From contig CM022670.1 of NCBI GenBank assembly GCA_012295275.1, positions 1,860,001-1,924,000 on the forward strand: a DNA stretch of 64,000 bases. The letters are read 5' to 3'. This stretch comes from Chrysomallon squamiferum (Eukaryota; Animalia; Mollusca). Positions 18,849 to 63,754 of the stretch are shown here, piece after piece (positions within the stretch are counted from its first letter, which is position 1; each line of letters starts with the position of its first letter). The translations under genes were made by a program, and so were the position numbers. The notes under the pieces are model-generated. The model did no database searches. It had not been told where the DNA came from and saw nothing but the letters and a program-made list of their open reading frames with translations.

Positions 18849-18950
<102 letters not shown>

Positions 18951-20476: not shown

Positions 20477-20515
<39 letters not shown>

Positions 20516-20894
20516 CACAAACACATATACATGTATATGATTTTGCAGTCTGGGAAAAAACATTATGAATAAAATATTTAATTAAATAATGGCAGTTTCA
20601 AATTTGTAAAAAAAAAAAAAAAAAATATGTATAAAGAAAATAATATTGAGACCTGCTATTGTCGTAGTACTTAACATATTGACATATCATCATCATCATA
20701 TGTCATCATCACCATCATCATCATATCTGTTGTTTGAAGCAAGTCTGAAAACGTTTTATCTTTGGTGATAAAATTATACGTTTATTAAACGCCCCGAGAG
20801 TTGTGTGTCTGAACAGAAGTTCTGGAATTTAATATATTTCTTTCTGTTTAGTTATTTAATTTACTCATTTTTTTATTTATTATTGTTATTGATA

Positions 20895-20978
<84 letters not shown>

Positions 20979-21945
20979 TTATTATTATTATTATTATTAT
21001 TATTGTAGTAATTGTTATCGTAGTTTTTGTTATTTTTGTCGTTTATATATCATGCATGATTTGTAACATTATTTTATCCAGCTGACGTCATCAAACAGAG
21101 AATTTACCTCAATGGCCTGACAACAACATTCCGAATATCGTCATAAATATATATATGTATGTATATTCTAGGCGTTAATTACAAGACGCATTTGTTTAAG
21201 AAATTTACTAACGATATTTTGCCACTAGCTTCTGGTAGCTGAGAGTGAAGCAGTGATTTATTTAGTGTAAAATATGTCTCAGACTAAAGTTTCCACAAAC
21301 TCACTGCTGATGTTATACTTGTTCAAGGTAAATCATTGTATAATTTAATTTGTAATAATTATAATTGTTGGGAACTATTTATTTATTTATTTATCATCAT
21401 AATCATCATCATGATTATCAAAATGTAAGAAGATTATTTTCTTTTTGGCTCTTTTATTTCGTGTTTTTATTCAAAAGAAGAAGAAAAAAGGTAAATTCTC
21501 GGAACGGTATCTTTGTGTTTTATTTTAATACTTTTAAAGATTAGTGTCCAGATATAACGATACTAATCTCTCTGTTGTATAAAAATATATTTAAGCTGTT
21601 TTTTTGTTTGTGGGTTTTTTTTAAATCTAAGATTAGACAAATATTTCATTTCGGTTATAATATGTAACTATTATATATTTTTTCCATTTCTAATTTACAG
21701 AGAAAGCTTAATAATTTAAAAATAAGCAGAATTCTACTCCGGTTTCCTAATAGAATTCATCCTGTCATTCAACACAGTTTCGACTAAAATAATCTAAGAT
21801 TACAAAAATTCACGCAGCCATCCAGAACATCTCCAAGAAATGATCGCATGACGTCATTAGAATCAACCCAGTCTTCCAGAACAGTTCCAGCAGTTTATGA
21901 CACGAGATGACAAGAATCCACCCAGTCATCCAGTCATCCAGTCCT

Positions 21946-22058
21946 TGCAGCCATAGCTTTCCCAATGTCACGTCTCCATTCACTAAGTACCGGCTTGCTG
22001 GAGCTCAGTCGTATGTTGGCAGTGACAGGACAAGGCTGAACTGAGTTTGATTCTCGTA
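21946..22058 (-). pseudogene. Relic fragment of another astacin-like paralogue (N-terminal part)
   Basis: gtaccggcttgctggagctcag..gta.gttg.ca.tgacaggac matches 24336-24380; frameshifted, with no start and no active site. Confidence 0.75.
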
Positions 22059-22106
22059 GAGTATTCAGTAGTAGTAACACAAACTAATCTTTGTTTATAC
22101 TGCTGT

Positions 22107-22209
<103 letters not shown>

Positions 22210-23157
22210 ATTTTTATTATCATTCAATGTAATATGAAACAGTTTTGTCATGAATAGTATATGTGTGAGAGTAACAACATAATTCAGTGAACATAATGTT
22301 CATAATTACTGTGTATATATGTGTATGTGTGTTTTAGCAAATATACATATATATATGTATGTATGTATGTATGTACACATACGTACACATATAAACATTA
22401 CTAGTAAAATGAGAATTACGAAAGAAGATATTGTGATACATGCTCTTCACATATACAGAAAAACTAATCTTGCCGTAAACAGGTACTTTAAAACTGAGCT
22501 GGGCACAAATAAACCCAACAGGGGCGCTTATGAGTATTGATGTGTGAAATATATCATATATTACTGAAAAATGTTCATAATATAATATATTATAGAAGCA
22601 TAATAAAGTATTAATGAAAAAAAGTATAATATGTTACTTACGATAACAATATATTACTTATAATAACAGTATTGTACAGTGCTTATAATTTAAATGAATA
22701 TATCAGCTGATGTATATTTTATAATAAAGATAATGTTGTATTTAGTATATTTTAAAAAAGACAAGAAATAATAAATACAATTTAGTGAAAATATAATTTA
22801 TTTTCTTTATCAATTTTAATATTTTTTGTTTTTGAAAATGACATAAAATGTATGTGTAAATATTATACAGAATAATAAAAATGTAAAACATTTGATTATC
22901 TATATCTTATTATTATATATAAAATGAATGTGCATTGTTACAAAACATTATTCTAGATACCATTACATATACATATCTATATCTATATGTATATCTATAT
23001 ATCTATCTATCTATCTATCTATATATATATATATATATTTAACTCTTCTTTATATACATTATTTAGTGACACTGTAATGAGAACTGTTTTCAGATATACT
23101 TGTTAATGACAAATTATAAACAAAATGTTTCCTGTAAATTTAAGCTACGATAAATAG

Positions 23158-23215
<58 letters not shown>

Positions 23216-23227
23216 ATTCAAACACAC

Positions 23228-23263
<36 letters not shown>

Positions 23264-23472
23264 TTATGCACGCATCATTGCTTTCTCAGATTAAATAATT
23301 GTGTTTTTAAAATTAAACAAATCACTATAAATTAAAACATATAGGCCTACTTTTTTTTCCAATACCGTCAGAGAGATACCAGTTCATTGTCATCTTCGCA
23401 TTTACTATTTAATAAAAATTCGTATCTAATAAAATCAGTCCAACAAAGACGTCACATGTTTAAATTTTAATG

Positions 23473-24549
23473 TTACTCAGTGATGTATTTGATATCAGGA
23501 CACAAAATTTTAAAACAGTCTTTGCACGGTACTCCGTTATTTGGTCCACAGTGGCCATCATGACCTGGAATCGATTTTAAGTAGTCGAATTCCCGTCCAC
23601 AGTACACCCACCCTGACCAGCCCTGCCACCGCCCCTTTCCAGTGAAGTCGTCTGCGGTGTCGGATCTCAGCACGCGGCAGGCTGGACAGTTTGGACCGTT
23701 GTTCGGTCCGCATCTTTCATCCGTAGTTGTCGGACAGGGACGATTGTTGAACGACATGACTCGTCTTCCACAATAAAACAATCCACTTCCGGAGCCTCGT
23801 TTTGGTTCGTAATCCGTTTTCGCACACGGTGGGAAGACCAAGTTTAAACTGAGTTTATCGAGTTCACTCAATTCCTCGTTAACCAGGCTCGACGGTTTCA
23901 GCTTCCAGGCTGTGTCCTCGTCGGGCTTCCGTACAAGATCTTCACTTTCCGGGTAGTGCATGACGCTGAACACGTCGTACCGAGTGAGAGCCAGCACGTG
24001 AGAATCGGTGGAGAAGTCTCGATACCAAGGATCGTCTTTCGGCACTTTACTTTTAACAAAATCCCCAGCATCCTTACGTTTGTGTTCGTGCTCGAATCCC
24101 AGCGCGTGCAGCAGTTCGTGAATTACGGTCCGTTTAGAAACCGGGTGTTCGTCGCCGAGCGAAACGACGACGTCATCGTACTGAAATATACTTCCTTTAC
24201 AAAACGCCTGATCATTCTTGTCACCCACCATTTTAATTTTGGAATACTCCGATGTGGAAATTTGTAACACGAGACCGGGAACGGCCAAACAGATTTGGTC
24301 TATTGCGTACGTTATTTGACGTATCCATTTGCTATGTACCGGCTTGCTGGAGCTCAGCTGTACGTTGACAATGACAGGACGGTCAGACAGGCTGAGCTGA
24401 CTCTGACTCTGGTAGAACCGAACGCATCGTAGACGTGGATCGCTTCTGACGTCAACTTCGTTCAGTTTTCGAACGACGTCTATAGCCCTGTTGTGTATAT
24501 ACTGAAGCGTCGCTCCGTCAGTTTCGTCCTCCGAATTTTTGCCGGCCAT
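23473..24549 (-). CDS. Intronless astacin-like zinc metalloprotease with two Cys4 repeats, copy B, 358 aa from the first ATG
   Basis: HELLHALGFEHEHKRKD, SVMHY, FYCGR...CGPNNGPNCPAC and VYCGR...CGPNNGVPCKDC. The ATG at 24549 has the same ACAATGG context as copy A (the ORF-track start at 24573 is a non-ATG codon). Confidence 0.92.
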   Translation of the reverse strand: MAGKNSEDETDGATLQYIHNRAIDVVRKLNEVDVRSDPRLRCVRFYQSQSQLSLSDRPVIVNVQLSSSKPVHSKWIRQITYAIDQICLAVPGLVLQISTSEYSKIKMVGDKNDQAFCKGSIFQYDDVVVSLGDEHPVSKRTVIHELLHALGFEHEHKRKDAGDFVKSKVPKDDPWYRDFSTDSHVLALTRYDVFSVMHYPESEDLVRKPDEDTAWKLKPSSLVNEELSELDKLSLNLVFPPCAKTDYEPKRGSGSGLFYCGRRVMSFNNRPCPTTTDERCGPNNGPNCPACRVLRSDTADDFTGKGRWQGWSGWVYCGREFDYLKSIPGHDGHCGPNNGVPCKDCFKILCPDIKYITE

Positions 24550-24961
24550 TGTCGAGTCTCGCGTAAACAACACCGGTGTGAATAACCTGTAGAGTTATCT
24601 CTGAGAATCACAGTGGCGTGACCCAGACAGTACAGTGTACCTATCTGTTTACACTGAATAACACGCTGAACAAACAGCGTAAATAAGTGTAGAAACAAGT
24701 TGGTTTTCTTATATAATCAACTAACATTTTTATGTAACTATTACTGCTGTTAAGATTAATGATATAGATAGCAACCACAATAGAGTATCAAGTTTAAAAC
24801 AGCTAGACTATTTATGTACAAGATAAAACTTAATGGGGGAAATAGATAAAGGGATATATATATGCGTGTGTATGTATATATATATATGTGTATATATATA
24901 CACACACACACATACATACATACATACATACACACAAAAATACATACATATATATATATAG

Positions 24962-25054
<93 letters not shown>

Positions 25055-26106
25055 TATTACTTTTTAAAATTATTATTGAATGTAATTATATGAAAGTGTT
25101 ATCATGAATAGTATATCTGCGAGAGTAACAGCATAATTCAGTGAATGTAAATAGAACAAAGCTATGCTAACACAATTCAGTGAATATCGATATAACTATA
25201 ATAAAAATTAACATTAACTGATTTTTTTAGATAACGTTCACGCATTATTAACTGAATGAAAATTACGAAAGAAGAGACTGTGATACATGCTCTTCACATA
25301 TATGGGAAAACTAATCTTGCAGTAAATAGGTACTTTAAAACTGAGCTGGGCACAAATAAACCCAACAGGGGCGCTTATGAGTACTGATCTTGCGTCTCAT
25401 TATTGTCCCAGGCTTCCTCTGTAACCACCAAATCTCAGCTGCTGTTTTTTATAGACACATCTTAAATGAAAATATCACGCATAATATTTAAAGTATTGTA
25501 TTTATTAAATGCCATACGTTACTGTCTTTCTTGATGCTGATCTCGATTGTTTCTGCTAATCATAGCCTATAAATACTCTTAAACATAACCGGTATTATCA
25601 CATTATTTTATCATCTTAGTTAATATCCACTGCGTCATCATGACGTCCACCATCACCGTGGCATCATCATCATCATCGTCAGTATCCTCATTGCTATTGT
25701 TGTTTCTGTTATTATTATTATTATTATCATCATTATTATTTTTGTTGTTGTTACTGTTTTTCATCGTCATTATTATCTTTATTTTTTCATTATTATTATT
25801 ATTGTTGTTGATACTGTTGATGTTGTTATCGTTACTCTAAAAAAGCTCTAAGAATATAAAACTGTACCAGATATTTCAGCAGCATTCCTTTCATAGAAAA
25901 AAAAAAATTACAAGGTCATTTGTTTGAGAAGTATCATGTTTTAGACGTGTTTTGTATTTGCACCATCACGTCCAGCCATTCTGTGAACGTTGAAATGACA
26001 AGCGTGACAAAGGAGGCTGAACATTGTCGAAAGTAAGTGTTTTATTTTATTTCTTGTACACGAATATTTTAAATACATCTTTACATCTTTAATGTACTGT
26101 TCAGTA

Positions 26107-26320
26107 AAGTTATTAGTATTATGACAGTGAAATACTTATGTATGTTATTAGTAATATGACAGTGAATTACTTATGCAAGTTATTAGAAATATGACAGTGA
26201 AAAATACTCATGTAAGTAATTTGTAATATGACAGTGAAATACTTATGTAAGTTATTTGTAATATGACAGTGAAATACGTATGCAAGTTATTTGTAATATG
26301 ACAGTGAAATACTTATGTAT
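26107..26320. repeat. 35-bp minisatellite, ~6 copies
   Basis: Unit AGTTATT(A/T)GTAATATGACAGTGAAATACTTATG(T/C)A; ATGACAGTGA at 26121, 26156, 26191, 26228, 26263, 26298; mirror at ~45355-45565. Confidence 0.9.
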
Positions 26321-26869
26321 ATTACTGAATTTTAAATGTCATTAAAATTATTCGTCTTAATTTATTGTTAATGCTGTGAATACAAATGTACAAACACCCA
26401 CATAAACGTACTTTGTGATGCTGTCAGAATGGTAATATTGAACTAAGCTGTTTATTTTGAACATGACAACTACAAAAAGAACCAAAGAAAACAAATAATA
26501 ATAATCTAAGCTCTGAGCGTCTTAGAGTTATGACGGGTCGTATATTCAATCCTCTTTGCAGAACCAGTTTGGACGTTTTTCATTCCAGTCAGGTCCACGT
26601 GAAAACGTATCCCTGATCTTAGAGTTTTCTCTCTTATGGCAACGTGCACAGAAAATGACCGGTGCTGTTCGTGGAAAAGAGAGAGATGTAGTGTGACTTG
26701 CAAAAAGGCCTTCTCATTATTACAATTCAAAAACTTATATTCATATTAGACAAAAGTTAGAATGAAAACGAGCAGAGATATCGTCAAATGTAATAACATT
26801 CGCAACTTCATCTTAAGCTGATATAAATATAAAGCTTTGTTTTCTTAGTTCTTATCACAGATATATAAT

Positions 26870-27851
26870 ATGACGGAACGACGAGGTTTGAAACGTGAGC
26901 TTGGCCTCTTTCAAGTTATATCGTATATCACTGGAGGAATTATCGGAGTTGGTATATTCGTAAGCCCCAGTGCAGTCCTGCAGGGTTCAGGATCGTCTCT
27001 TGGTGTCTCCCTGATTGTGTGGATCTCGTGCGCCGTCATCAGTTACTTTGGTGCGCTTTGTTATGCAGAGCTAGGTATGTGCACCTTGTAGATGAATTTT
27101 TTTTTCAAGTTAAGGCAAAGCAATAATATTATAGTCGTTGGTGAATCATATATAATGAGTAAAATAAAGCAAATATCACAAGCTGTGGATAAATAAAAAA
27201 AAAAATTAAAAAAAAAAATGTCTTAACATATGTGTCGATTTACAGATAATTTTCATAGTCATATATATATATTGTTTTAAACTTGTATTTTGAAATAATC
27301 TAGCTGTCTTCTTTTTCATTGTCTCTTCCTTTTATTACTACTGTTACTATTACTGTTATTATTATTATTATTATGATTATTATGATTATTATTATGATTA
27401 TTATTATTATGATTATTATGATTATTATGATTATTATTATGATTATGATTATTATGATTATTATGATTATTATTATGATTATTATTATTATTATTATTAT
27501 TATTAAATATGAAAAAGTTATCTTATTCTTAGTTTTTAAATTATTTATAATCTCAAGTTTAATTAGCATATGAAAAACAATATAGATAGCTAAATAATAT
27601 ATATTATTAATATTATTATTTTCCAGGAATACTTGTTCCTAAATCAGGTGGTACGTATACTTATGTAAGAGAGGCGTTTGGCGACGTTTTAGGATTCATG
27701 TGCTGTTGGGCTCACTTGGTCTTGGTACGACCTCTTGCTTCAGTTGTAGCCAGTCTTGCAGCTGCAGAATATTTCCTCAGACCATTCTTTCTCTTCTGTC
27801 CTGAGCTGATTCCACCTAAAGCTACAAAGCTGCTGGCATGCGCTGTTTTAT
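26870..27851 (+). CDS. SLC7/LAT-type amino acid transporter, exons 1-2 only (mirror copy of 44801-43936, truncated by the gap)
   Basis: Exon 26870-27074 (LKRELGLFQVISYITGGIIGVGIFVSP...GALCYAELG|GTATGT) and exon 27627-27851 (GILVPKSGGTYTYVREAFG...LRPFFLFCPELIPP...|GTAAG). Confidence 0.88.
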
Positions 27852-28166
27852 GTAAGAACTGAGAAAAGTATCACCAATAACAACCTTATCATTGTCACAT
27901 TTAATACCACCACCGCCATCATCTCTATCACCGTCAGTGCTGTTCATGATATATATCTCTCGTGATTTCTTTGTAATTTACGATTATTATTATGATTTGT
28001 TCTTTGAAGTACGTGTATCATGATAACGGTGATGAATGATAATGTTCAAGTATTGTGATTCTTCTCTCTTCGTACAAATGTGTCCTGTGAGATACCAATG
28101 CCTTAAACTCTATGACGTATGAATCATTTTCTATTAGACTTGCAAGTGTTTTGTTCAGTGACGAAT

Positions 28167-28366
28167 NNNNNNNNNNNNNNNNNNNNNNNNNNNNNNNNNN
28201 NNNNNNNNNNNNNNNNNNNNNNNNNNNNNNNNNNNNNNNNNNNNNNNNNNNNNNNNNNNNNNNNNNNNNNNNNNNNNNNNNNNNNNNNNNNNNNNNNNNN
28301 NNNNNNNNNNNNNNNNNNNNNNNNNNNNNNNNNNNNNNNNNNNNNNNNNNNNNNNNNNNNNNNNNN
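28167..28366. other. Assembly gap (200 N)
   Basis: Run of N; the round length suggests an arbitrary gap size. Confidence 1.
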
Positions 28367-36844: not shown

Positions 36845-44801
<7,957 letters not shown>

Positions 44802-46598
44802 ATTATATATCTGTGATAAGAACTAAGAAAACAAAGCTTTATATTTATATCAGCTTAAGATGAAGTTGCGAATGTTATTACATTTGACGATATCTCTGCT
44901 CGTTTTCATTCTAACTTTTGTCTAATATGAATATATAAGTTTCTGTATTGTAATAATGAGAAGGCCTTTTTGCAAGTCACGCTACATCTCACTCTTTTCC
45001 ACGAAGAGCACCGGTCATTTTCTGTGCACGTTGCCATAAGAGAGAAAACTCTAAGATCAGGGATACGTTTTCACGTGGACCTGACTGGAATGAAAAACGT
45101 CCAAATTGGTTCTGCAAAGAGGATTGAATATACGACCCGTCATAACTCTAAGACGCTCAGAGCTTAGATTATTATTATTTTTTTTATTTGGTTCTTTTTG
45201 TAGTTGTCATGTTCAAAATAAACAGTTTAGTTCAATATTACCATTCTGACAGCATAACAAATTACGTTTATGTGGGTGTTTGTACATTTGTATTCACAGC
45301 ATTAACAATAAATTAAGACGAATAATTTTAATGACATTTAAAATTCAGTAATATACATAAGTATTTCACTGTCATATTACAAATAACTTGCATACGTATT
45401 TCACTGTCATATTACAAATAACTTACATAAGTATTTCACTGTCATATTACAAATAACTTACATGAGTATTTCACTGTCATATTTCTAATAACTTGCATAA
45501 GTATTTCACTGTCATATTACTAATAACTTACATAAGTATTTCACTGTCATAATACTAATAACTTTACTGAACAATACATTAAAGATGTATTTAAAATATT
45601 CGTGTACAAGAAATAAAATAAAACACTTATTTTCGACGATGTTCAGCCTCCTTTGTCACGCTTGTCATTTCAACGTTCACAGAATGGCTGGACGTGATGG
45701 CGCAAATACAAAACACGTCTAAAACATGATACTTCTCAAACAAATGACCTTGTAATTTTTTTTTTCTATGAAAGGAATGCTGCTGAAATATCTGGTACAG
45801 TTTTGTATTCTTAGAGCTTTTTTAGAGTAACGATAACAACAACAACAGTATCAACAACAACAATAATAATAAATAATAATAATGAAAAAAATGAAGATAA
45901 TAATGACCATGAAAAACAGTAACAACAACAAAAATAATAATGATAATAATAATAATAACAATAATAATAACAGAAACAACAATAGCAATGATGATACTGA
46001 CGATGATGATGATGATGCCACGGTGATGGTGGACGTCATGATGACGCACTGGATGATATTAACTAAGATGATAAAATAATGTGATAATACCGGTTATGTT
46101 TAAGAGTATTTATAGGCTATGATTAGCAGAAACAATCGAGATCAGCATCAAGAAAGATAGTAACGTATGGCATTTAATAAATACAATACTTTAAATATTA
46201 TGAGTGATATTTTGATTTAAGGTGTGTCTGTAAAAACAGAGGAAGCCTGGGACAATAATGAGAGCAAGATCAATACTCATAAGCGCTCCTGTTGGGTTTA
46301 TTTGTGCCCCTGCTCAGTTTCGTAGTACCTGTTTACATCAAGATTAGTTTTTCTGTATATGTGAAGAGCATGTATCACAGTATCTTCTTTCGTAATTTTC
46401 ATTCAGTTAATAATGCGTGAACGTTATCTAAAAAAATCAGTTAATGTTAATTTTTATTATAGTTATATCGATATTCACTGAATTATGTTAGCATAGCTTT
46501 GTTCTATTTACATTCACTGAATTATGCTGTTACTCTCGCAGATATACTATTCATGATAACACTTTCATATAATTACATTCAATAATAATTTTAAAAAG

Positions 46599-46704
<106 letters not shown>

Positions 46705-47093
46705 GTATGTATTTTTTGTGTATGTATGTATGTGTGTGTGTGTATATATATACACATATATATATATACATACACACGCATATATATATCCCTTTATCTA
46801 TTTCCCCCATTAAGTTTTATCTTGTACATAAATAGTCTAGCTGTTTTAAACTTGATACTCTATTGTGGTTGCTATCTATATTATTAATCTTAACAGCAGT
46901 AATAGTTACACAAAAATGTTAGTTGATTATATATGAAAGCCAGCTTGTTTCTACACTTATTTACGCTGTTTGTTCAGCGTGTTATTCAGTGTAAACAGAT
47001 AGGTACGCTGTACTGTCTGGGTCACGCCACTGTGATTCTCAGAGATAACTCTATAGTTTATTCACACCGGTGTTGTTTACGCGAGACTCGACA

Positions 47094-48170
47094 ATGGCCG
47101 GCAAAAATTCGGAGGACGAAACTGACGGAGCGACGCTTCAGTATATACACAACAGGGCTATAGACGTCGTTCGAAAACTGAACGAAGTTGACGTCAGAAG
47201 CGATCCACGTCTACGATGCGTTCGGTTCTACCAGAGTCAGAGTCAGCTCAGCCTGTCTGACCGTCCTGTCATTGTCAACGTACAGCTGAGCTCCAGCAAG
47301 CCGGTACATAGCAAATGGATACGTCAAATAACGTACGCAATAGACCAAATCTGTTTGGCCGTTCCCGGTCTCGTGTTACAAATTTCCACATCGGAGTATT
47401 CCAAAATTAAAATGGTGGGTGACAAGAATGATCAGGCGTTTTGTAAAGGAAGTATATTTCAGTACGATGACGTCGTCGTTTCGCTCGGCGACGAACACCC
47501 GGTTTCTAAACGGACCGTAATTCACGAACTGCTGCACGCGCTGGGATTCGAGCACGAACACAAACGTAAGGATGCTGGGGATTTTGTTAAAAGTAAAGTG
47601 CCGAAAGACGATCCTTGGTATCGAGACTTCTCCACCGATTCTCACGTGCTGGCTCTCACTCGGTACGACGTGTTCAGCGTCATGCACTACCCGGAAAGTG
47701 AAGATCTTGTACGGAAGCCCGACGAGGACACAGCCTGGAAGCTGAAACCGTCGAGCCTGGTTAACGAGGAATTGAGCGAACTCGATAAACTCAGTTTAAA
47801 CTTGGTCTTCCCACCGTGTGCGAAAACGGATTATGAACCAAAACGAGGCTCCGGAAGTGGATTGTTTTATTGTGGAAGACGAGTCATGTCGTTCAACAAT
47901 CGTCCCTGTCCGACAACTACGGATGAAAAATGCGGACCGAACAACGGTCCAAACTGTCCAGCCTGCCGCGTGTTGAGATCCGACACCGCAGACGACTTCA
48001 CTGGAAAGGGGCGGTGGCAGGGCTGGTCAGGGTGGGTGTACTGTGGACGGGAATTCGACTACTTAAAATCGATTCCAGGTCATGATGGCCACTGTGGACC
48101 AAATAACGGAGTACCGTGCAAAGACTGTTTTAAAATTTTGTGTCCTGATATCAAATACATCACTGAGTAA
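47094..48170 (+). CDS. Intronless astacin-like zinc metalloprotease with two Cys4 repeats, copy B' (358 aa)
   Basis: Mirror of 23473-24549; the translations differ only at TTDE[R/K]CGP; ATG at 47094. Confidence 0.92.
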   Translation: MAGKNSEDETDGATLQYIHNRAIDVVRKLNEVDVRSDPRLRCVRFYQSQSQLSLSDRPVIVNVQLSSSKPVHSKWIRQITYAIDQICLAVPGLVLQISTSEYSKIKMVGDKNDQAFCKGSIFQYDDVVVSLGDEHPVSKRTVIHELLHALGFEHEHKRKDAGDFVKSKVPKDDPWYRDFSTDSHVLALTRYDVFSVMHYPESEDLVRKPDEDTAWKLKPSSLVNEELSELDKLSLNLVFPPCAKTDYEPKRGSGSGLFYCGRRVMSFNNRPCPTTTDEKCGPNNGPNCPACRVLRSDTADDFTGKGRWQGWSGWVYCGREFDYLKSIPGHDGHCGPNNGVPCKDCFKILCPDIKYITE

Positions 48171-48387
48171 CATTAAAATTTAAACATGTGACGTCTTTGT
48201 TGGACTGATTTTATTAGATACGAATTTTTATTAAACAGTAAATGCAAAGATGACAATGAACTGGTATCTCTCTGACGGTATTGGAAAACAAAGTACTAAA
48301 ATGTAGGCCTATATGTTTTCATTTAAAGTAATTTGTTTAATTTTAAAAACACAATTATTTAATCTGAGAAAGCAATGATGCGTGCAT

Positions 48388-48479
<92 letters not shown>

Positions 48480-49442
48480 ATGAGCCTATTTATTGAGAGA
48501 GAAAATTTCCTTTAGAGAGAGAATGAGGAAATAAATTTTGTTTTAATTTGTCATTAACAAGTATATCTGAAAACAGTTCTCATTACAGTGTCACTAAATA
48601 ATGTATATAAAGAAGAGTTAAATATATATATATAGATAGATAGATAGATAGATATATAGATATACATATAGATATAGATATGTATATGTAATGGTATCTA
48701 GAATAATGTTTTGTAACAATGCACATTCATTTTATATATAATAATAAGATATAGATAATCAAATGTTTTACATTTTTATTATTCTGTATAATATTTACAC
48801 ATATATTTTATGTCATTTTCAAAAACAAAAAATATTAAAATTGATAAAGAAAATAAATTATATTTTCACTAAATTGTATTTATTATTTCTTGACTTTTTT
48901 AAAATATACTAAATACAACATTATCTTTATTATAAAATATACATCAGCTGATATATTCATTTAAATTAAAAGCACTGTACAATACTGTTATTATAAGTAA
49001 TATATTGTTATCGTAAATAACATATTATACTTTTTTTCATTAATACTTTATTATGCTTCTATAATATATTATATTATGAACATTTTTCAATAATATATGA
49101 TATATTTCACACATCAATACTCATAAGCGCCCCTGTTGGGTTTATTTGTGCCCAGCTCAGTTTTAAAGTACCTGTTTACGGCAAGATTAGTTTTTCTGTA
49201 TATGTGAAGAACATGTATCACACTATCTTCTTTCGTAATTTTCATTTTACTAGTAATGTTTATATGTGTACGTATGTGTACATACATACATACATACATA
49301 TATATATGTATATTTGCTAAAACACACATACACATATATACACTAATTATGAACATTATGTTCACTGAATTATGTTGTTACTCTCACACATATACTATTC
49401 ATGACAAAACTGTTTCATATTACATTGAATAATAATAAAAAT

Positions 49443-49545
<103 letters not shown>

Positions 49546-49593
49546 ACAGCAGTATAAACAAAGATTAGTTTGTGTTACTACTACTGAATACTG

Positions 49594-49713
49594 TACGAGA
49601 ATCAAACTCAGTTCAGCCTTGTCTGACTGTCCTGTCACTGCCAACATACGACTGAACTCCAGCAAGCCGGTACTTAGTGAATGGAGACGTGACATTGGGA
49701 AAGCTATGGCTGC
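49594..49713 (+). pseudogene. Relic astacin-like paralogue fragment (mirror of 21946-22058)
   Basis: Reads YENQTQFS/LSDCPVTANIRLNSSKPVLSEWRRDIGKAM (1-nt frameshift) versus copy B YQSQSQLSLSDRPVIVNVQLSSSKPVHSKWIRQITYAI. Confidence 0.8.
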
Positions 49714-51052
49714 AAGGACTGGATGACTGGATGACTGGGTGGATTCTTGTCATCTCGTGTCATAAACTGCTGGAACTGTACTGGAAGACTGGGTCGATTC
49801 TAATGACGTCATGCGATCATTTCTTGGAGATGTTCTGGATGGCTGCGTGAATTCTTGTAATCTTAGATTATTTTAGTCGAAACTGTGTTGAATGACAGGA
49901 TGAATTCTGTTGGGAAACCGGAGTAGAATTCTGCTTATTTTTAATTTATTAAGCTTTCTCTGTAAATTAGAAATGGAAAAAATATATAATATTTACATAT
50001 TATAACCGAAATGAAATATTTGTCTAATCTTAGATTTATTCTTTACTCTGTTAGCTGTATATGTGTGATGGCAAAAAAACAAAAAAACCAAAAAAAACCA
50101 GCTTAAATATATTTTTATACCACAGAGAGATTAGTATCGTTATATCTGGACACTAATCTTTAAAAGTATTAAAATAAAACACAAAGATACCATTCCGAGA
50201 ATTTACCTTTTTTCTTCTTCTTCTTTTGAATAAAAACACGAAATAAAAGAGCCAAAAAGACAATAATCTTCTTACATTTTGATAATGATGATGATGATTA
50301 TGATGATAAATAAATAAATAAATAGTTCCCAACAATTATAATTATTACAAATTAAATTATACAATGATTTACCTTGAACAAGTATAACATCAGCAGTGAA
50401 TTTGTGGAAACTTTAGTCTGAGACATATTTTACACTAAATAAATCACTGCTTCACTGTCAGCTACCAGAAGCTAGTGGCAAAATATCGTTAGTAAATTTC
50501 TTAAACAAATGCGTCTTGTAATTAACGCCTAGAATATACATACATATATATATTTATGACGATATTCGGAATGTTGTTGTCAGGCCATTGAGGTAAATTC
50601 TCTGTTTGATGACGTCAGCTGGATAAAATAATGTTACAAATCAGTTACTACAATAATAATAATAATAATATTAATAATAATAATAATAATAATAAAATAA
50701 TAATAATAATAAAATATCAATAACAATAATAAATAAAAAAATGAGTAAATTAAATAACTAAACAGAAAGAAATATATTAAATTACCAAAAAAAATCCAGA
50801 ACTTCTGTTCAGACACACAAATCTCGGGGCGTTTAATAAACGTATAATTTTATCACCAAAGATAAAACGTTTTCAGACTTGCTTCAAACAACAGATATGA
50901 TGATGATGGTACTACGACAATAGCAGATCTCAATATTATTTTCTTTATACATATTTTTTTTTTTTTTTTTACAAATTTGAAACTGCCATTATTTAATTAA
51001 ATATTTTATTCATAATGTTTTTTCCCAGACTGCAAAATCATATACATGTATA

Positions 51053-51128
<76 letters not shown>

Positions 51129-52655
51129 TGGTTAATCCTTTAAACATCTAATCATGTACGATATATTTAAACCACTAATCTCAGTCATTCACATGTAGCC
51201 TTCAGAAAACATTAGAAATATTAATAATATAATAAAACACATCTGAACTAGATAAAAATTATTTTTGAGAAGCTGTTGATAACTGCAGGCATTACATTAT
51301 GGGGTTACCATAGCTACAAAACATACCAAGTTAACTCAGGTTCTGTGCGTTGGTGGGGACACGCTGTAGAATGTTCTTGAGACTAACAGAACGACCTGGC
51401 TTTGTATTCTTATGAAATGGAGGCTAGTGTATCTATCCATGTCCCGAGACGTCTAACGCAGTCGCATAAGACCCGTAATTAGCACTGTCGTGACGTAACG
51501 AGATCAGAACACCGCAACGGCCTTTACATTCTTGCTCCAAATCAGCACATACTACGCATACAGATCTCCCTTTGTCGGGTAGATAGCTACTCGATTTGGT
51601 TCGGCTCCAAGGGTATTCAGGAAACAAGTCATATATGTATTTCTATTCAGCCAACGTTAACTCAGTAGAAACACAATAACGCGAATTTAAAGAATATATG
51701 TTTTATATGATAATAGTTATTTACCGAGTAAGCTTACCATTCTTACACTGCCGATTACAAAGAGTTTTTATTTTATTGTAAAACTGAACTCTCTCTGTCT
51801 GTCAACCAAAACGCCATCTCTACTTTTATTGCCTAGAGAAGACTACATAGGGTGTCTCTTAACATTCCTGTCCCGGGAGTGGTGATGTGACTGTTTGGAA
51901 CTTTGGTAGACATGCAGGCACCGGTGTGTCCCACAAAACAACACCTAACCATAGCGTATATAATGTTCAAGGAAATCTAACATCAAAGATGTATTAAACA
52001 GGAGACTTCTGTCTCAGATACACTTAGGTTATGTAATTTTTAAGGGTAACATCTTAAAGAGGAGACTTTCGTCTTCGTCACAAAACCACCAACACAAACT
52101 AAACCATTTAAATATTATTGCAGCATTTGATTTGCTATATATCAGTTTATCCTGTGTAAAAGATTCTGATTTTTATATCGAACGCAAAGAAAATATTTAA
52201 TAATGGATATATATATATATATATATATTAAGAATATAAGAGTTTATATCTGTCTTGCATGTGTGTGTTTGTATGTGTTTACGGGTTCAGTTCATTCTAT
52301 ATTTGTAAGCGTTGTACATAAGGATTGTCAGACTTGTCATAATAGCATCTATATATTTTATACAGATTATACTATTTTTACTTTATCAAACCCGCATATA
52401 CTACTGAAAATATAAATTCATTTATTCGTGTTTTCTAATTTTGTAGACTGAACTGTATATACCTAGTGTTCCTACAGTAATTTGATTAGGAAGTATTTAA
52501 GGGAAAAAATATAATCATATTGGAATATTCTCTGAACTATGAGCTCATCTCACGCAATTACAAATTATAAAATAAATGCTATAATGTTTCGTTAATTGGA
52601 TTATGAACGCATATGTACTCAGTCTTATGAGATTTGCTGTACTTTTAAACAAGGC

Positions 52656-52749
<94 letters not shown>

Positions 52750-52758
52750 ATCTCTCTT

Positions 52759-52845
<87 letters not shown>

Positions 52846-53741
52846 ATAGAAATATCTAGATGATTCAGCGTCATTAAAATCACTTTTATGTAATGTATTC
52901 AGAACACAATTAAAACCTGTGAAATTATTAACTAGACAATTATCATAATATTAATTTTATTACACTATCAAAAAAAAATATAATAACAACATTCTCTGTA
53001 TTATAAAATATACTAATAACAAAATTATCTTTATTATAAATTATACATCAGCTGACTTATATTCTTTTAAATTAAAAGTGCTGTACAGTAGTGTTCTCAT
53101 AAGTAAGCCTACTGTATGCTATCATTTATAATAAGAACTATATAAAAGTTTTATTATAAGTAATATATTGTTACCGTAAGAAACATATTATACTTTTTTT
53201 CATTAATACTTTATTATGCTTTTATAATATAATATATTACGAACATTTTTCAATACTGTATGTTATATTACACACTTCAATGCTCTTAAGTGACCTTGTT
53301 GGATTTATTTGTGCCCTAATAAAATACATTAAATATTATGCGTGATATTTTGATTTAAGGTGTGTCTGCAAAAACAGCAGCTGAGGTTCAGTGGTTACAG
53401 AGGAAGCCTGGGACAATAATGGGTCGCAAGATCAGTACTCATAAGCGCCCCTGTTGGGTTTATTTGTGCCCAGCTCAGTTTCATATTACTTGATTACTGC
53501 AAGATTAGTTCTTCTGTATATGTGAAGAGCATGTATCACACAATCTTCTTTCGTAATTTTCATTTTACTAGTAATGTTTATATGTATACGTGTGTGTACA
53601 TATATATATATTTGCGAAAACACACATACACATATATACACAGTAATTATAAACATTATGTTCACTGAATTATGTTGTTACTCTCAAAAATATACTATTC
53701 ATGATAAAACTTTCATATTACATTGAATAGCAATAAAAATA

Positions 53742-53830
<89 letters not shown>

Positions 53831-54262
53831 ATATATATATATATATATATATTATAACACTTTCTCTATTTCTTACATTCAGTTTTATTTTTCCTTCGGG
53901 TCACATTTTGATCATTAATAGTCTAGCTGTTTTAAATTTGATAGAGTATTGTGGTTGTTATTTATATTATTAATCTTAGTCTGTAACAGCACTGATAATT
54001 ATATAAAAATATTAGTTGATCATATGAAAAAAGCCAACTGTTTCTACACCCATTTAAGCTGTATATAATGTTTGTAATTTTATACACAAAGGCTTGCGGC
54101 ACTGTCATAGTCACGTGACTAGGATATTTAGAGCAGAACTCTACAGGTTATTCAATCTGGTATTCTGTCTGTACGAGACTCAACAACGGCAGACAAAAAG
54201 TATCTGGCGGTAACTGAAGAAGACCACTTCAAAGTAAACCGAAAAAGGCTGCACAATTCGTT

Positions 54263-55243
54263 ATGGAACTGAATACTGGCGATAGCCAAGAACCGTGTGT
54301 TCAGTTCTACAAGAAACAAAGTTGTCGGAGCCTGGCTGACAGTCCTGTCATTGTCAACGTATTCCTGAGCACCAGCGAGCCGGTACATAGCAAATGGATA
54401 CCTCAAATAACGTACGCAATACAGGAAATCAATGTGGCCGCTCCGGGTCTCGTATTACAAATGTCCACGTCGGAGAATTCCAAAATTACAATAGTTGGTG
54501 CAGAAAATGATGAGGCGTTTTGCAAAGGAAATATAGGTCGGCCGGATGACGTTGTTGTATCGCTCGGCAATAAATTCCCTGTTTCTAAAGGGACCGCAAT
54601 TCACGAACTTATGCACGCGCTAGGATTTGGGCACGAACATCAACGTCAAGATTCTCCTGTTGATATAAAAGTGAAGACAGATAATCCTTGGTATCCACAG
54701 TTCGCCGCTAATGATGACTTTCTGGGTCTGACTCGGTACGACGTGTTCAGCGTTATGCACTACCCAGAAAGTGAAGATCTAGTACGGAGGCCCGATCAGG
54801 ACAATGTCTGGAAGCTGAAATCGTCGAGCCTGGTTAACGAGGAATTGAGCGAACTTGATAAAGTAGGCTTAAACTTGATCTTCCCACCGTATAAAAAACC
54901 GGGTTACGAACCAAAACGATGCTCCGAAAATGGAATGGCTTATTGTGGAAGACAAGTCATGAAGTTTAACAATCGCCCCTGTCCGACAAATACGGATGAA
55001 AGATGCGGACCGAACAACGGTCCAAACTGTCCAGCCTGCCGCGTGCTGAGATCCGACACCGTAGAGAAATTCACTGGAAAGGGGCGGTGGCAGGGCTGGT
55101 CAGGGTGGGTGTACTGTGGACGGGAATTCGACTACTTAAAATGGAATTCAGGTCATGATGGCTATTGCGGACCAGATAATGGAGAACCGTGCAAAGACTG
55201 TTTTAAAATGTTGTGTCCTGGTATCAAACACTTCAATGAGTAA
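54263..55243 (+). CDS. Intronless astacin-like zinc metalloprotease with two Cys4 repeats, copy C, 326 aa
   Basis: HELMHALGFGHEHQRQD, SVMHY, AYCGR...CGPNNGPNCPAC and VYCGR...CGPDNGEPCKDC; positional mirror of copy A and colinear with A residues 27-352. Confidence 0.9.
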   Translation: MELNTGDSQEPCVQFYKKQSCRSLADSPVIVNVFLSTSEPVHSKWIPQITYAIQEINVAAPGLVLQMSTSENSKITIVGAENDEAFCKGNIGRPDDVVVSLGNKFPVSKGTAIHELMHALGFGHEHQRQDSPVDIKVKTDNPWYPQFAANDDFLGLTRYDVFSVMHYPESEDLVRRPDQDNVWKLKSSSLVNEELSELDKVGLNLIFPPYKKPGYEPKRCSENGMAYCGRQVMKFNNRPCPTNTDERCGPNNGPNCPACRVLRSDTVEKFTGKGRWQGWSGWVYCGREFDYLKWNSGHDGYCGPDNGEPCKDCFKMLCPGIKHFNE

Positions 55244-58200
55244 CATTAAAATTTAAACATGTGACGTCTTTGTAGGAGTGATTCTATTAGATATGAGTTT
55301 TTATTAAAGAGTAAATGTGAAGATGACAGTGAACTGGTAGCTCTCTAGTGACGGTATTGGAAAAACAATGTACAAAAATGTAGGCCTATATGTTTTCATT
55401 TAATGTATTTTTTTAATTTTTAACACAATTATTTAATCTGAGTAAGCAATGATGCGTGCATTTGTGTGTATTATTTCTTTCAATATTTTTTGTTATATAA
55501 TGGTATGTAGAATAATGTTTTGTAACAATGCACATTCATTTTATATATAATAATACAAAGATAACCAATGTTTTAACATTTTTATTATTGTATATATTTA
55601 CAGATACATTTTATGTCATTTTCAAAAACAAAAACTGTGTTTAGTGATTTATCATCTCTTTCTTTGCTTTTTCTTGTCTTTTTTAATTCTATATTTTAAA
55701 AACATTAATAATGAAGCCTATTTTATTATATATGTTTTTACTTATCAGAACAAGTATATAACATATCGTAAGTAAACCTTTTTATACTTTGGAGACAACC
55801 AAATATAAATATATTTACAAAAATTTACATAATTTACATTTAGTAAATACCTGAAATTAAGAAACAACTGTAAATCTTTACAACATATCTAAAGACAATG
55901 TAAGAGTAAAACTTAATTATTGAAATTCACTATTTTAGATTGAATGTCACGAGATATTTCTAAATTCCTTGAAAAGCAGAAGAAAGTTAGTCAATCCTGA
56001 TTTTGACGAAAAAAAAAAAAAAAAAAAGGTATTTGAATTTTTGTATTTCTGCATTTGACGATTTATCAGGAACATTGCCGAGTCTTCAGACTTCCAAACA
56101 GAATAATTTCTGAATTCCTAAATGAATCTTTATCAGGTTGTCATCCAGTAAAGAGCAGGGTAAGGGCTGAAAGACTGGGTGTGTTCTACTGTCATAATCC
56201 GACAGTTTACATAAACAGTTCTAAATGTAAGGACTGGATGGATTCTTGTCATAAACTGCTGGAACTGTACTGGAAGACCGCATCGATTCTAATGACGTCA
56301 TGCGATCATTTCTTGGAGTTGTTCTGGATGGCTGCGTGAATTCTTGTAATCTTAAATGATTTTAGTCGAAACTGTGTTGAATGACAGGATGAATTATGTT
56401 GGGAAACCGGATTAGAATTCTGCTTATTTTTAATTTATTAAGCTTTCTCTGTAAATTAGAAATGGAAAAAAATATATAATATTTACATATTATAACCGAA
56501 ATGAAATATTTTTTGAAATTTAGATTTATTCTTAATTCTATTAACTGTATATATGTGATGGCAATGAAAGAAAAAAAAAGCTTAAATATATTTTTGTACA
56601 ACAGAGAGAATAGTATGGTTACATCTTGACACTAATCTTTCAAAATGAATAATATAATAAAACATATCTGAACTAGATAAAAAATATTTTTAAATGCTAT
56701 TGAACAAATCTTGAATCACTATTTCATTCGGATAACGGCAAAACTTACATTATGGTTACCATAGCTACCATTACGTTTCATAATATTTCAGGTTCTGTGC
56801 GTTGGTAGGATAAGCTGTAGAATGTTCTTGAGACCAATAGAACAATCTGGCTTTGTATTCTTATGAAATGAATCTAGTGTATATATATATATATATATAT
56901 ACACCTAATATTCCTACAGTGATTTGATTAAGAAGTATTTAAGGGGAAAAAATGTATCTGACAATAATCATAAATGTATTAATTACGATTTAATATTTAA
57001 CAATGTTTCATTCTGATTTCCATTCATACACTACAGAACGTGCTGAACTAAATTACTCGTGTTTAAACAAACTGCTATTTAACTTCTGTTTGCCACGTAT
57101 GATAGAGTGATAAATATTCTCTGAAATAAGAGCTACAACCCACCTCTAAAATCACGCAATTACAAATTGCAAAATAAATGCTATATTGTTTCGTTGAATG
57201 GAATATGAACACTTGTGCAGTCAGTTTATTCATGTTTTAGCCTATTAAATGAACCATATCTTCTTCAGCTGAGTGAATACACAACAAGCAAACTGTTTTG
57301 AGCTCATTTCAAGATATTATCTTGTACTTTACATCCAGTACCCTTGGACGAAGTCTACTGTTACCGTAACTTTATATTGTCCTTGTTACTTACCATACTG
57401 AATAAACAGATTTTGTCAGTAGGGATCGAAGTGTTGTAATTAAATGCGGCTCACCACTCTTCAGCTTGTTGTTATCATGGTTTACTGGTGTGGGTTTTGG
57501 TGGTGGGTTTTAAAAAACCATATATGCGCGTTTATAAAGGAAATATCCACTTACGTGTAAAATAAATTTTTATTGTCTTCAAGAGAAGAAAAGCTAATAT
57601 TTCGTCCTAGCTACTTTACATTGTGTTACATTTAGAACGAGCGCGAACAAGCCAACCAGAAAGTTCACGACGAGTCAAGCAGATACGGTTATATCCTCAA
57701 AAACGTGATCGCAAAACGTCTGACGAAAAAGCATAACTTAGGCAGTTAAAATGAAAGAAGGTTATCAAAAGTGATCTGCTTCTTGGAAAAGTAAATAACC
57801 GTAAAATCCAGCAACCGTTGCATATTTTCAGATAATCTTATCTAAAAAACTGGATACAAAGAAATGTCTTTACCTATACACCGAGGTGTCTTAAATTAAA
57901 CCCGTGATGTTTTTACAATTCTTAGCCCGTTCTTTATCACTGATAAGGAACACAATTAAGATAAATATAATATACTACCAATTGTAAAGCAATGAGATTA
58001 GAATAAAAAGTTCAAACTGTTAAAACGAGTGTTCTAAATACAAACAGAATTTAATAAAAATAAAAATAAAATTATATATAAATCAAATTAAAATACCATT
58101 AACCAATGATGAAGTCTTACAAACTGGTCAGATCAAATCAATACCAGAACGTTCTGATTTTCTAAGTTTATAATATTAAGCAAGACACTTCAAAATTATC

Positions 58201-58592
58201 ATAATTTTTCGAGGATCCCGCACTAAATACTTGCATGCTATAAAAATCATTACTGTTGTCCTGATAACTTTTTTGTTGATATATTTTTAAACTGATATAT
58301 CAAATAATATTATTTTCAGTACATTAATTCATGACAGGGTGACTTTTTATAGCCCCGACTAATTTACTCCGACCCTGGCAGACTTCATTTTAATTGGCAG
58401 TGAATCAGCTAATACATCTTTATGTCTTTAATTTATACTATTAACGCATAAAACGTTCAGAAAACCCACCGCCATAGTTACTTACTGCTAGCAGCCATGG
58501 CTGTTTGTTGACAATAAATAAATATGTAAATAAACAGTTTCTAGTAACAAAAATGAAATAAAGAATTAAGTACAATAAGTGCTGCTGTTGCT

Positions 58593-58626
<34 letters not shown>

Positions 58627-58628
58627 AT

Positions 58629-58664
<36 letters not shown>

Positions 58665-59741
58665 GACTAATACTAATAATAATAATAATAATAAATTACT
58701 ACTACTACTACTACTGCTGCTGCTGCTACTATTACTACTACAACTACTACTACATTAACTACTACTACTACTACAACCATTACTAGTACTACTACTACGA
58801 CTAATAATAATAATAATAATAAATTACAGTATGATCAAATAAAGAAACAAAGAAACAAATAAATAAATAAAACTGACTCGTACTAAATTATAAACAGTAA
58901 CCCCAAACCAGACGAACCTGACTTCGATCGATTTACGTCTGCTAGTAAGTGAAGACATCCAGTCGTCCCTAGCAACGATATGGCATATATTATGTTATTT
59001 GCCTCGAGAACCAATGAAAAGCCGATATTCCATTGATATGAAACAGGTCACACGCCTAGATGAAATGAGGAATGCGCTGCATAGTTTCCTCGCGCAGGAA
59101 ATAATAGCATTCGGATTAAAAGGTCGTTTGGCTAACGAAGGAACACGGAAAGGAAAATCCAAAAACAAGGAGGGAAAAAGCGTTTGAGGGTAAGGCGTTG
59201 TTCGTGAATTTTGCGGCAGTCATTTTAATGCTAATGTTTTATCGTTCATTACATCACACTAGTCCGACTGAATAACGTGTTAATGTTCTCATTGTTTTCC
59301 ATGAGACTTAGTAATCTAGTTTCAATATGCATGCGTTGATACATAATTCATTTGTAAGGATTGTCAGATTTCTTGTTATAGCTATTACTGGCAGGAAATC
59401 TGTATCGCTGTGCAATGATTAAGTTAGACAGAAAATATCAGAAATAATTATTTAATAAAAATGTAAAAAAAATAATAGAAACAGCTTAAGAGAGATACAT
59501 ATGACAGTACATACATACATACATACATACATACATACATACATACATACATACATACATACATACATACATGCATGCATGCATACATACATACATACAT
59601 ACATACATGCATACATACATACATACATACATACATACATACATCCATGCATGCACATAAACATACGTATGCGTACATTTATACATAGAGAGAAACTGAA
59701 CGAAAGAACGGTATGAGACAGAGAATGAGACACATCCTAAC

Positions 59742-59914
<173 letters not shown>

Positions 59915-61386
59915 TATAAATAAGTTTCTTTTATCTTCCCCTATTAAAACAATACTTAGATCTAGTCTCTTTGTTGCATCATCCACCATAAAATACCAGC
60001 CCAGTCAATACTGGTTATAGTACTAAAAAAAAAGAAAAACGATAGCAGAATTAAAGATAAACGAAACAAATACTTGACACTGTAAATATAAACCAGGATG
60101 TAGGAGTAGTGTTAATGAACTCGTGTTTATCTGTGTTTCAGTTAATATTACATATTTAAATCCGCCTTATGTAGAAACATATATAATATAGTATACGTGG
60201 TATATCTTAGTATAGTACAGTACAGTATAGCAGAGCATTGTACAGCATACCCTAGTGTAACATAGTGTGCATATACTTCTTTTCAAAAATTAGAAAAAAA
60301 TAATAAATGCTGAATGCAGTTTGTGGTTTCAATACTTGACAATGTAATAACATAGGATACACCAGAAGTGTTGAACTCGACATTAATCACTGAACTTGAC
60401 GACCTCACATTTAAATGAATCTTAAGTACATACGTATATCCTCTTTTTATATTCTCTTCTTTTCAATGCAGGTTTTCCTATTGAAATGAAGATGAAAATT
60501 ATGAAAGCTGAAACCAGTTTCTCACAGTTCGTCGCTTCAAAGCAGGCTAAAAGAAGTTACTTTGGAAAACAAGGAATTTTAATTAAAAATTATCAGAGTT
60601 AACCGTGACACACAGTCAAAATATGGTAAGTAATACACTATTCTTTACTATGCTACACTGTGCTATACTTTATATTCTGTTCTATAGTACTATACTATAC
60701 TATTCTATACTATTGTGACAGGTAGTCGAAATATGGCATGTGATATATCTGTACTATACTATGCTATGCTATGCAGTGCTATGCTGTGCTGTGCTATGCT
60801 ATACTATACTATCTATACTATTCTATACTAGACTGTATTATACAATATTATACAATACTACACTATACAACACTATACTGTACGATATTGTACTATACAG
60901 TTCTATACTATACTATATTTTACTATATTAAACTATACTTTACTGTACCATACTATTCTGTACTGTATTGTACTGCATTGTACTGTTCTATATACTATAT
61001 ACTAAATTATACTATATCAGAGTCAACTGTGACAGATGGTCGAAATAATGTACTATACTATAGTATACTATACTTATTATACTGTACTATACTGTTCTAT
61101 ACAGTACTATACTATACTGTACTGGACTGTACTGAACTGTTCTCTACCATACTATACAGTTTTAACGAGAAATAACATATTTTAATATTAGTGTTGTCAA
61201 AACATAATCAGTGTTAAATATGTTATGAGTTAGTAGATACCAAAACAACATAGTAACAGTCAATCTTAAATATGTTAGTTGAAGATTAAATCGCAGATGC
61301 CAAATAAAAGTCAATATTAAAATAAAGCAGATACCAAAACATTAAATAAGTGAAGCTGCCGTTTAAACTTGTGTTTATACATTGTC

Positions 61387-61448
<62 letters not shown>

Positions 61449-61864
61449 TAATAATAATAATAATAATTTAAAAAAAATTATTTCAGTAAGTAAATTGAAA
61501 CCTCTCTGTACGCTTACTAAAGACGACATGTAAAATTATGAAACTACGGGAGTTAAAACTTTCATTCATTCAGAGTGTAGATAACCAATAAAAAATAATT
61601 CAAAAAAACAACAAAAAAACAATCGTAAATTTCTCAAACTTTTACAAATATCATTATTGTTCATGAAGAACGGTATCATTAATGCTACATTCCTTAATTC
61701 CAAAGAAACTTTATTTTGCATAGCATATGAAAAAAAATTAATATAAAAATAAACAATATTCCTCAACGCAGTCGTAAATCCTTTTAAGTTGTAAGTGACA
61801 CTTCTGATAATGTCCTGTAACGATTTGAATCACAAAGCGATATACAAATATGAAGAGTCAAAAA

Positions 61865-63013
<1,149 letters not shown>

Positions 63014-63070
63014 ATTAGGAAGTAATTTGTGTTTTTTATTACTGTTGTAATTTTAAATCATTTCTCACAG

Positions 63071-63291
63071 CTGGATGATGATGTTGAGACTCTGAAGATT
63101 GCTCATCCAATCATTGGAATAATAGTCACAGTCCTCGTTTTCTTCAATGTGAGTTGTTATTGTTGTTGTTGCTATTATTATTATTATTATTTCTATTATT
63201 AGTATTATTATTATTATGATTATTATCATTACTATTATGATGATTATTATTATTATGATTATTATTATTATTGTTATTATTGCCTTTATTA

Positions 63292-63343
<52 letters not shown>

Positions 63344-63677
63344 TGCTTTAATTGCTTTTGTTTTTGCCATTGCTATTATTATTATTATTACTGTTGTTAG
63401 TGTCCTTATTATCCTTGTTATTATTAAAGGTTTTAATACTGCTACTAATATTACCACAACTACTAATTACTACAAGTACTACTGCTACAACTTCTGCTAC
63501 TTCTATTACTACTGCTGATACTACTATTATAATTCCATTTCTGGTACAGTTAACATATTAAGTATTTTCCTTTGCAGCCTATAATGGCAATATTTCGACC
63601 TCATCCTGGGACAAAGAACAGACCAATATTCAACTGGGCTCACTGGGGAGTTGGGACAGCAGCTCATATTTTAGGAG
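63071..63677 (+). CDS. FRRS1: Two internal exons of a cytochrome b561 / ferric-chelate reductase 1-like protein
   Basis: Exon 63071-63148 (TCACAG|LDDDVETLKIAHPIIGIIVTVLVFFN|GTGAGT) and exon 63578-63677 (TTGCAG|PIMAIFRPHPGTKNRPIFNWAHWGVGTAAHILG|GTAAGC). HPxxG and FRP...R..FNW.H...G are haem-ligand motifs of DOMON-cytochrome b561 proteins. Confidence 0.8.
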
Positions 63678-63754
63678 GTAAGCCTGGTTTAATACATGTA
63701 ACAGTGTAAGTGTACAAACACAACCGTTACACATTTGAGTAAAATTGTTTTACT

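Follow-up and report, generated by a model that had tools for sequence, protein, structure and literature searches.

Astacins are described as secreted enzymes. Members of the family (Pfam PF01400, M12A), such as crayfish astacin, the hatching enzymes, BMP1 and the meprins, share a HExxHxxGxxH zinc motif followed by Glu, a SIMHY-type Met-turn with a Tyr ligand and a common fold, and the available part of PMC9848320 gives among the astacin traits an FXGDI propeptide motif with the aspartate switch. Here we describe an astacin locus in a 64-kb window, i.e., the whole stretch of DNA that was analyzed. The window is AT-rich and contains a Pfam Astacin match in four intronless ORFs, named A, B, B' and C. 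Gene C (54263..55243, + strand) encodes 326 aa, with an astacin-type catalytic domain and two YCG..CGPxNG..CxxC modules, and gene A (16505..17563, − strand) is an intact ORF of 352 aa. Gene B (23473..24549, − strand) encodes 358 aa, evolves slowly and is nearest to the best database homologue, P0001. Gene B' (47094..48170, + strand) differs from B at 4 nt, 3 of them silent, and, as a preliminary description of this DNA had reported, at 1 of 358 residues. We propose that A and C are highly divergent versions of one astacin-fold protease gene predicted to be cytosolic, likely alleles and likely under diversifying selection; our confidence in this combined reading is about even.

The structural model of A, built with a 60-sequence alignment (pLDDT 89.8, pTM 0.91), has an astacin fold over approximately residues 53–237, including the five-stranded sheet and the backing, active-site and C-terminal helices. 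Fold searches, conducted with A residues 17–238 only, matched crayfish astacin 6saz_A (Z 15.4, rmsd 2.8, 176 aligned residues). A single-sequence model of C reached a pLDDT of 32.5. The HEXXHXXGXXH zinc motif reads HELLHALGFGH in A and HELMHALGFGH in C; the Glu after the third His (E151 in A) occurs in 44 of 45 motif-complete homologues, and the SVMHY Met-turn with its Tyr is present in all four copies. Within the XXRXDRD motif, A, B and C retain R-x-D and have the final RD replaced, with ExxRxD present in 31 of the 45 homologues. Unlike the astacins in the available part of PMC9848320, the A/C protein has no signal peptide, no FXGDI and no conserved disulfides, its ExxRxD is shortened, and its Cys-rich C-terminal module is outside the astacin domains named there. 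No N-terminal hydrophobic stretch was found in A (best 11-residue hydropathy 0.75), and none of the 45 motif-complete homologues had an N-terminal hydropathy above 1.8, both by a simple proxy rather than a signal-peptide predictor. The propeptide FxGD was not found in A, B or C, and no Cys was present among the columns conserved at ≥85% over A residues 53–235.

The tail of A, B and C consists of two YCG..CGPxNG..CxxC units and may bind zinc through its cysteines. Neither Pfam nor the protein atlas contained a family for this tail, and the whole protein led only to astacin clusters in the atlas. The tail module gave 220 matches among cluster representatives, from which 59 carriers, mostly longer ones, were chosen for a domain scan. 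Among these chosen carriers, 32 have an astacin domain (2 also a caspase-like domain and 1 also ubiquitin), another 14 combine the module with RING, U-box, B-box, PHD or Roc domains instead of astacin, and 13 had no Pfam match; CUB, EGF, MAM and ShKT, the extracellular partners of astacins, occurred in 0 of the 59. Proteins P0161, P0202 and P0027 are family members fused to caspase-like domains or ubiquitin, and the Cys-rich module, which has no Pfam model, is also found repeated beside RING, U-box, PHD and Roc domains. Because A has no N-terminal hydrophobic stretch, no FxGD and no conserved Cys pairs, and because the module partners are of intracellular type, the A/C protease is predicted to work in the cytosol, possibly within a ubiquitin or cell-death setting.

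A database search for the signal-less astacin plus CGPxNG family returned 82 matches. The coral members are named only 'uncharacterized' or 'metalloendopeptidase', including the Acropora 'uncharacterized protein' XP_029199726.2. These relatives share the architecture of A and C at 30–56% identity and have no annotated function; their close protein pairs are mostly 94–99% identical (10 of 13). The best six metagenome loci of the family are single open frames, two of them within a three-copy cluster on one contig, and are distant (best 36% identity), too far for dN/dS. That cluster, with L003 (1303-3813) and L006, comprises three family members, not all in the same orientation, on a metagenome contig of 29 kb; local clusters therefore recur in the signal-less astacin family. 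No description of a signal-less astacin carrying this Cys-rich module turned up in a literature search, outside which most subscription journals fall, and within that scope the family looks undescribed.

Genes A and C are located in an apparent 18-kb inverted repeat. Its left arm (9912..28166) ends exactly at a scaffold gap of 200 N (28167..28366), the sole gap of the window, inside an amino-acid-permease gene, while its right arm (43621..61864) runs without a gap into a noisy, purine-only GA array (61865..63010), likely a misjoin or an inversion breakpoint. Beyond this array are two late exons of an FRRS1-like ferric-chelate-reductase gene (63026..63706, + strand; profile positions 436–507 of 612), for which no upstream exons were found within the 64-kb window using 15 homologues and their profile. 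Two tandem SLC7-like amino-acid-permease genes are encoded on the minus strand at 37604-44822 (−) and 28367-33783 (−), the second cut by the gap. Of the first SLC7-like gene, the left arm carries just exons one and two, at 26849-28166 (+), and the third exon of this arm-end gene is present only on the right. We also observed a degenerate tandem repeat of ~1.3 kb (41801-43130) within a permease-gene intron and, outside the inverted repeat, a Core-2/I-branching glycosyltransferase gene (PF02485; 5647-7391, −) that consists of a single long exon plus another that is likely the last.

The mirror positions of A and C, noted in the preliminary description, do exist as inverted arms in the assembly; they are likelier to hold alleles than mirrored paralogues. 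Because one arm ends at a gap and the other at a GA array that precedes an orphaned gene tail, the mirror is probably an artefact of assembly in which two haplotypes, and not a duplication, are displayed. According to the available part of 10.1101/2020.05.22.110833, assemblies of heterozygous genomes commonly contain erroneous duplicates next to gaps, and our locus resembles the false heterotype duplications described there in having a diverged duplicate beside a scaffold gap and high haplotype divergence. However, that part describes them as tandem or separate, whereas the arms are inverted here, and an inverted false duplication also requires a misjoin or a heterozygous inversion. A less likely alternative is a real segmental duplication in inverted orientation, with A and C as true paralogues, with positive selection acting on the gene and with conversion or youth keeping the arms at 2–3%. 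The same layout would arise if a contig broke off within a true palindrome, and the gapless right outer junction is in line with it. Arm-versus-arm non-coding substitutions amount to 1.7–3.3% away from C and 4.2–6.7% adjoining C, with 85 indels, and the divergence peaks at 11.9% on the A/C gene, a contrast that the available part of PMC3924837 presents as a signature of selection against conversion. Against paralogues, the arm stops exactly at the gap and within a gene, the FRRS1 tail is orphaned, and only four identical tracts of at least 200 nt are shared between the arms.

Further evidence on alleles and paralogues came from other animals. Four of the nine public runs listed were compared with C, i.e., three DNA runs from two studies (X1, X2 and X3) and one RNA run, with X4, X5, X6, X8 and X9 left out; the depths given are contig depths rather than copy numbers, contigs drop variants, and 40 of 249 variant rows were examined. 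X2 yielded one C-like contig of 529 nt with 15 differences from C, compared with 71 for A over the same stretch; this contig continues without a break through two segments, of 46 and 41 nt, in which A equals C. X3 yielded one A-like contig over 54578-54934 with 41 differences from C, where A has 39, and a flank stretch of X1 had 0 differences from C in 254 nt. The depths of A/C-type and B-type contigs approximately add up to that of their shared 3' end in X2 (11.4+6.4+7.2 vs 24.7) and in X3 (13.5+15.2 vs 29), so that no depth is left for a second A/C type; each of these runs thus shows one gene-body type, which argues against paralogues. Nevertheless, both an A-like and a C-like N-terminus were present in all three DNA runs, which favors paralogues, and three A/C-type classes seem to be present in X1 and in X3, more than a single diploid locus can yield unless the runs were pooled. 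A-like, C-like and further types differ among the three DNA runs of the two studies, which may be pooled. By hand count, the three letters absent from A, B, B' and C among the variant rows listed all alter an amino acid, as do 10 of the 11 listed differences between the X2 contig and C. Contigs of the RNA library, which had no DNA carry-over control, cover A-like, C-like and B-like coding sequence; the flanks had no RNA cover, to which no weight was given. Taken together, we consider it probable that A and C are alleles of one locus displayed twice by the assembly, and possible, at rather low probability, that they are true paralogues.

The same comparison bears on whether one copy is a consensus artefact of sequencing or polishing errors, which the preliminary description had named as a refuting outcome and which we regard as very improbable. 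There is noisy sequence nearby, and none of the four runs compared shows the 3' letters peculiar to C, an absence given no weight as contigs drop minority bubbles. However, other animals carry stretches within 0–3% of C as well as A-like stretches, and errors would neither spare conserved columns nor keep 326 codons in frame. For the gene body, an artefact is largely refuted.

At the 5' end, C is not the intact enzyme it had been taken for, at least as assembled, since A's first 26 codons are missing from its ORF. Their counterpart (54186..54262, + strand) has ACG at 54186 in place of the ATG start of A and is one base short, near 54225, and hence out of frame. Due to the ACG and the missing base, the ORF of C begins with a different ATG, at the position of A codon 27. 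An extra base at 54225, which puts C in A's frame, occurs at about half of the contig depth in the three DNA runs (50.8/104.6 in X1, 7/14.5 in X2 and 3.5/6.9 in X3) and was not seen in the RNA contig (0/4.2 depth). With the RNA contig and half of the DNA depth lacking this base, the N-terminally truncated form of C may be real. C also alters some conserved positions (C236Y, S249N and F252A).

The first reading's count of 81 residue differences between A and C over 326 aligned positions was confirmed; at the nucleotide level, the two differ at 117 of 978 nt. The reported clustering into patches also held, with 33 adjacent pairs of changed residues vs 19.9 expected (p=0.0003), as did the invariance of the zinc ligands and Cys motifs: neither the zinc motif nor the Met-turn is altered between A and C, nor is any Cys of the two CGPxNG motifs. 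To call the change near-exclusively non-synonymous was an overstatement, as the Nei-Gojobori method counts ~18 silent vs 99 replacement changes gene-wide and a codon count gives 10 silent-only vs 81 replacement, the neutral expectation being 74% replacement. The 53 codons at 54614-54772, which had been singled out, do contain eight differences that are all non-synonymous. With a neutral replacement fraction of 0.74, the probability of 8/8 is 0.09 for that segment alone, and such a segment arose in 382 of 1000 neutral simulations (38%); as stand-alone evidence it is at chance level and was rejected.

Selection was evaluated with our own codon-model fits on two or three sequences only (A and C, or A, C and B). 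A whole-gene dN/dS clearly below 1 had been set beforehand as the outcome that would speak against selection, and it came out at 2.1–2.2: omega between A and C was 2.13 (p=0.005), and 2.19 (p=0.017) when double and triple hits were allowed. The Nei-Gojobori dN/dS was 1.55, with a bootstrap interval of 0.99–2.71. When codons were split by conservation across 57 homologues, the 175 family-variable codons had an omega of 3.2–3.9 (p≤0.0015), compared with 0.88 for the 151 conserved codons. Columns conserved at ≥70% accounted for 8 of 80 changed residues vs 91 of 245 unchanged residues (p=1.4e-6). For A, C and B together, the site model M2a, which has a positively selected class, was preferred over the neutral M1a (p=5e-8, or p=0.003 when multi-base hits were allowed), placing ~11% of sites at omega 7–9 and 74–76% of sites as neutral; for the 5' part alone with multi-base hits, the p value rises to 0.056. 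Branch omegas were 3.2 for A (p=0.011), 1.6 for C (p=0.18, not significant) and 0.72 for B. In two codon segments of C picked after the data had been seen, codons 13–175 had a dN of 0.164 and a dS of 0.036, while codons 176–250 had an omega of 0.87 and a dS of 0.18. For A-B and C-B, dS was 0.22–0.25 and omega 0.7–1.0.

Multi-base mutation can inflate such selection tests, and conversion together with multi-base mutation can inflate those on A and C. This leads to another explanation, which we find improbable, that there was no positive selection: a redundant daughter gene would have come under relaxed constraint, with C decaying and omega inflated by multi-base mutation and by mosaic conversion, the donor being either B or a paralogue not seen here. 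The loss of A's start and frame at the N-terminus of C fits this account, as do the 49 of 117 nucleotide differences that adjoin another difference, the better fit of the multi-hit model by 10 lnL units, the tracts in which A equals B, the conserved-codon omega of 0.88, which is not low, and the large neutral share of sites. However, omega stays above 2 even with multi-base hits, the signal is strongest on the branch of the intact A, and all catalytic and Cys residues are retained. Neutral conversion from an old paralogue, another of the outcomes named in advance, would not give what was found in codons 13–175, where dS is at the non-coding background of the arms (1.7–3.3%) and dN is ~4.6 times higher. 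The A-C selection signal is real but moderate, and the replacement excess is likely due to diversifying (balancing) selection. This part of the preliminary description is thus supported by the whole-gene omega, the site model and the sparing of conserved columns, with the qualification that part of the 3' difference is conversion with B.

The likely tract of this conversion is in the Cys-rich tail of A (16586..16800, − strand), with almost no difference between A and B. Two stretches of the tail, 149 and 54 nt long, are identical in A and B, and the likeness of the two genes continues beyond the stop codon; these features point to gene conversion between them at the 3' end, in which case some of the 3' difference between A and C is B sequence in A. 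As for the origin of A/C, B shares 229 of 331 residues with P0001, compared with 190 of 325 for A and 178 of 325 for C, and B groups with P0001 in a protein tree. In relative-rate counts against P0001, unique catalytic-domain changes numbered 42 vs 11 for A vs B and 43 vs 9 for C vs B, i.e., A and C have ~4 times as many as B. The tree alone is no proof; the flanks of A and B are ~82% identical and their dS is 0.22, which argues for a younger split with acceleration. A/C would then be a young, accelerated daughter of B, as far as these sequences indicate. Each arm also carries two copies of an element of 300–450 nt, one downstream of the A/C gene and one downstream of the B gene (15046-15495, 21622-21944, 49716-50181 and 56244-56664); this element may have belonged to the unit first duplicated from B to A.

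Returning to A and C as likely alleles, we propose the following mechanism. A local duplication of B would have left B conserved and its daughter sped up approximately fourfold. Selection would then favor new residues on the N-terminal helices, within the lower subdomain and in the loops next to the strand that lines the cleft rim. Judged from secondary structure and astacin topology, strand 111–114 would form the upper rim of the cleft, with the YQNERA/GRPDDV patch (A118–123) directly after it; MITPLNQ/KLKSSSL (A210–216) would belong to the lower subdomain past the Met-turn, and the other patches to the N-terminal and backing helices. Residues so placed would change the substrates of the enzyme or its sensitivity to inhibitors, and conversion with B would homogenize the Cys-rich tail and reshuffle the patches. 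Given that the partners of the Cys-rich module in other proteins are RING, U-box, B-box, ubiquitin and caspase-like domains, this module would tether the protease to targets in the cytosol. By analogy with these domain partners, the protease may have a role in defence, or in allorecognition or host-parasite conflict as the preliminary description suggested, and an arms race with intracellular microbes or parasites might be the likeliest driver, an assignment we make tentatively and with somewhat less than even confidence.

A conserved signal-less branch joined to a module associated with E3-ligase and caspase-like domains would represent a new setting for the astacin fold. If A and C are alleles, a 25% amino-acid divergence within one species would indicate a strong, ongoing selective pressure, and the gene would provide a small, intronless handle on invertebrate intracellular defence. 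The locus also calls for caution, as an eye-catching palindrome may consist of two haplotypes and not of a duplication. A broader reading, which we hold as doubtful, is that an undescribed family of cytosolic astacins, common to marine animals and protists, is tethered to a mobile zinc-binding module of ubiquitin and cell-death proteins and is represented here by a single defence locus with MHC-like alleles that differ at a quarter of their residues, fed by conversion from its conserved neighbor.

Nematode hyper-divergent haplotypes, reportedly under balancing selection, are a comparable system. With the hyperpolymorphic loci that undergo conversion in the available part of PMC3924837 (MHC, plant SI and R genes), A/C has in common a replacement excess, a divergence peak that decays into the flanks, mosaic haplotypes and a neighboring paralogue as donor. 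In contrast to MHC, SI and R loci, A/C encodes a predicted cytosolic enzyme and not a receptor. The evolutionary pattern is therefore of a known kind, as the same part of PMC3924837 describes it, and the new part is the predicted cytosolic astacin.
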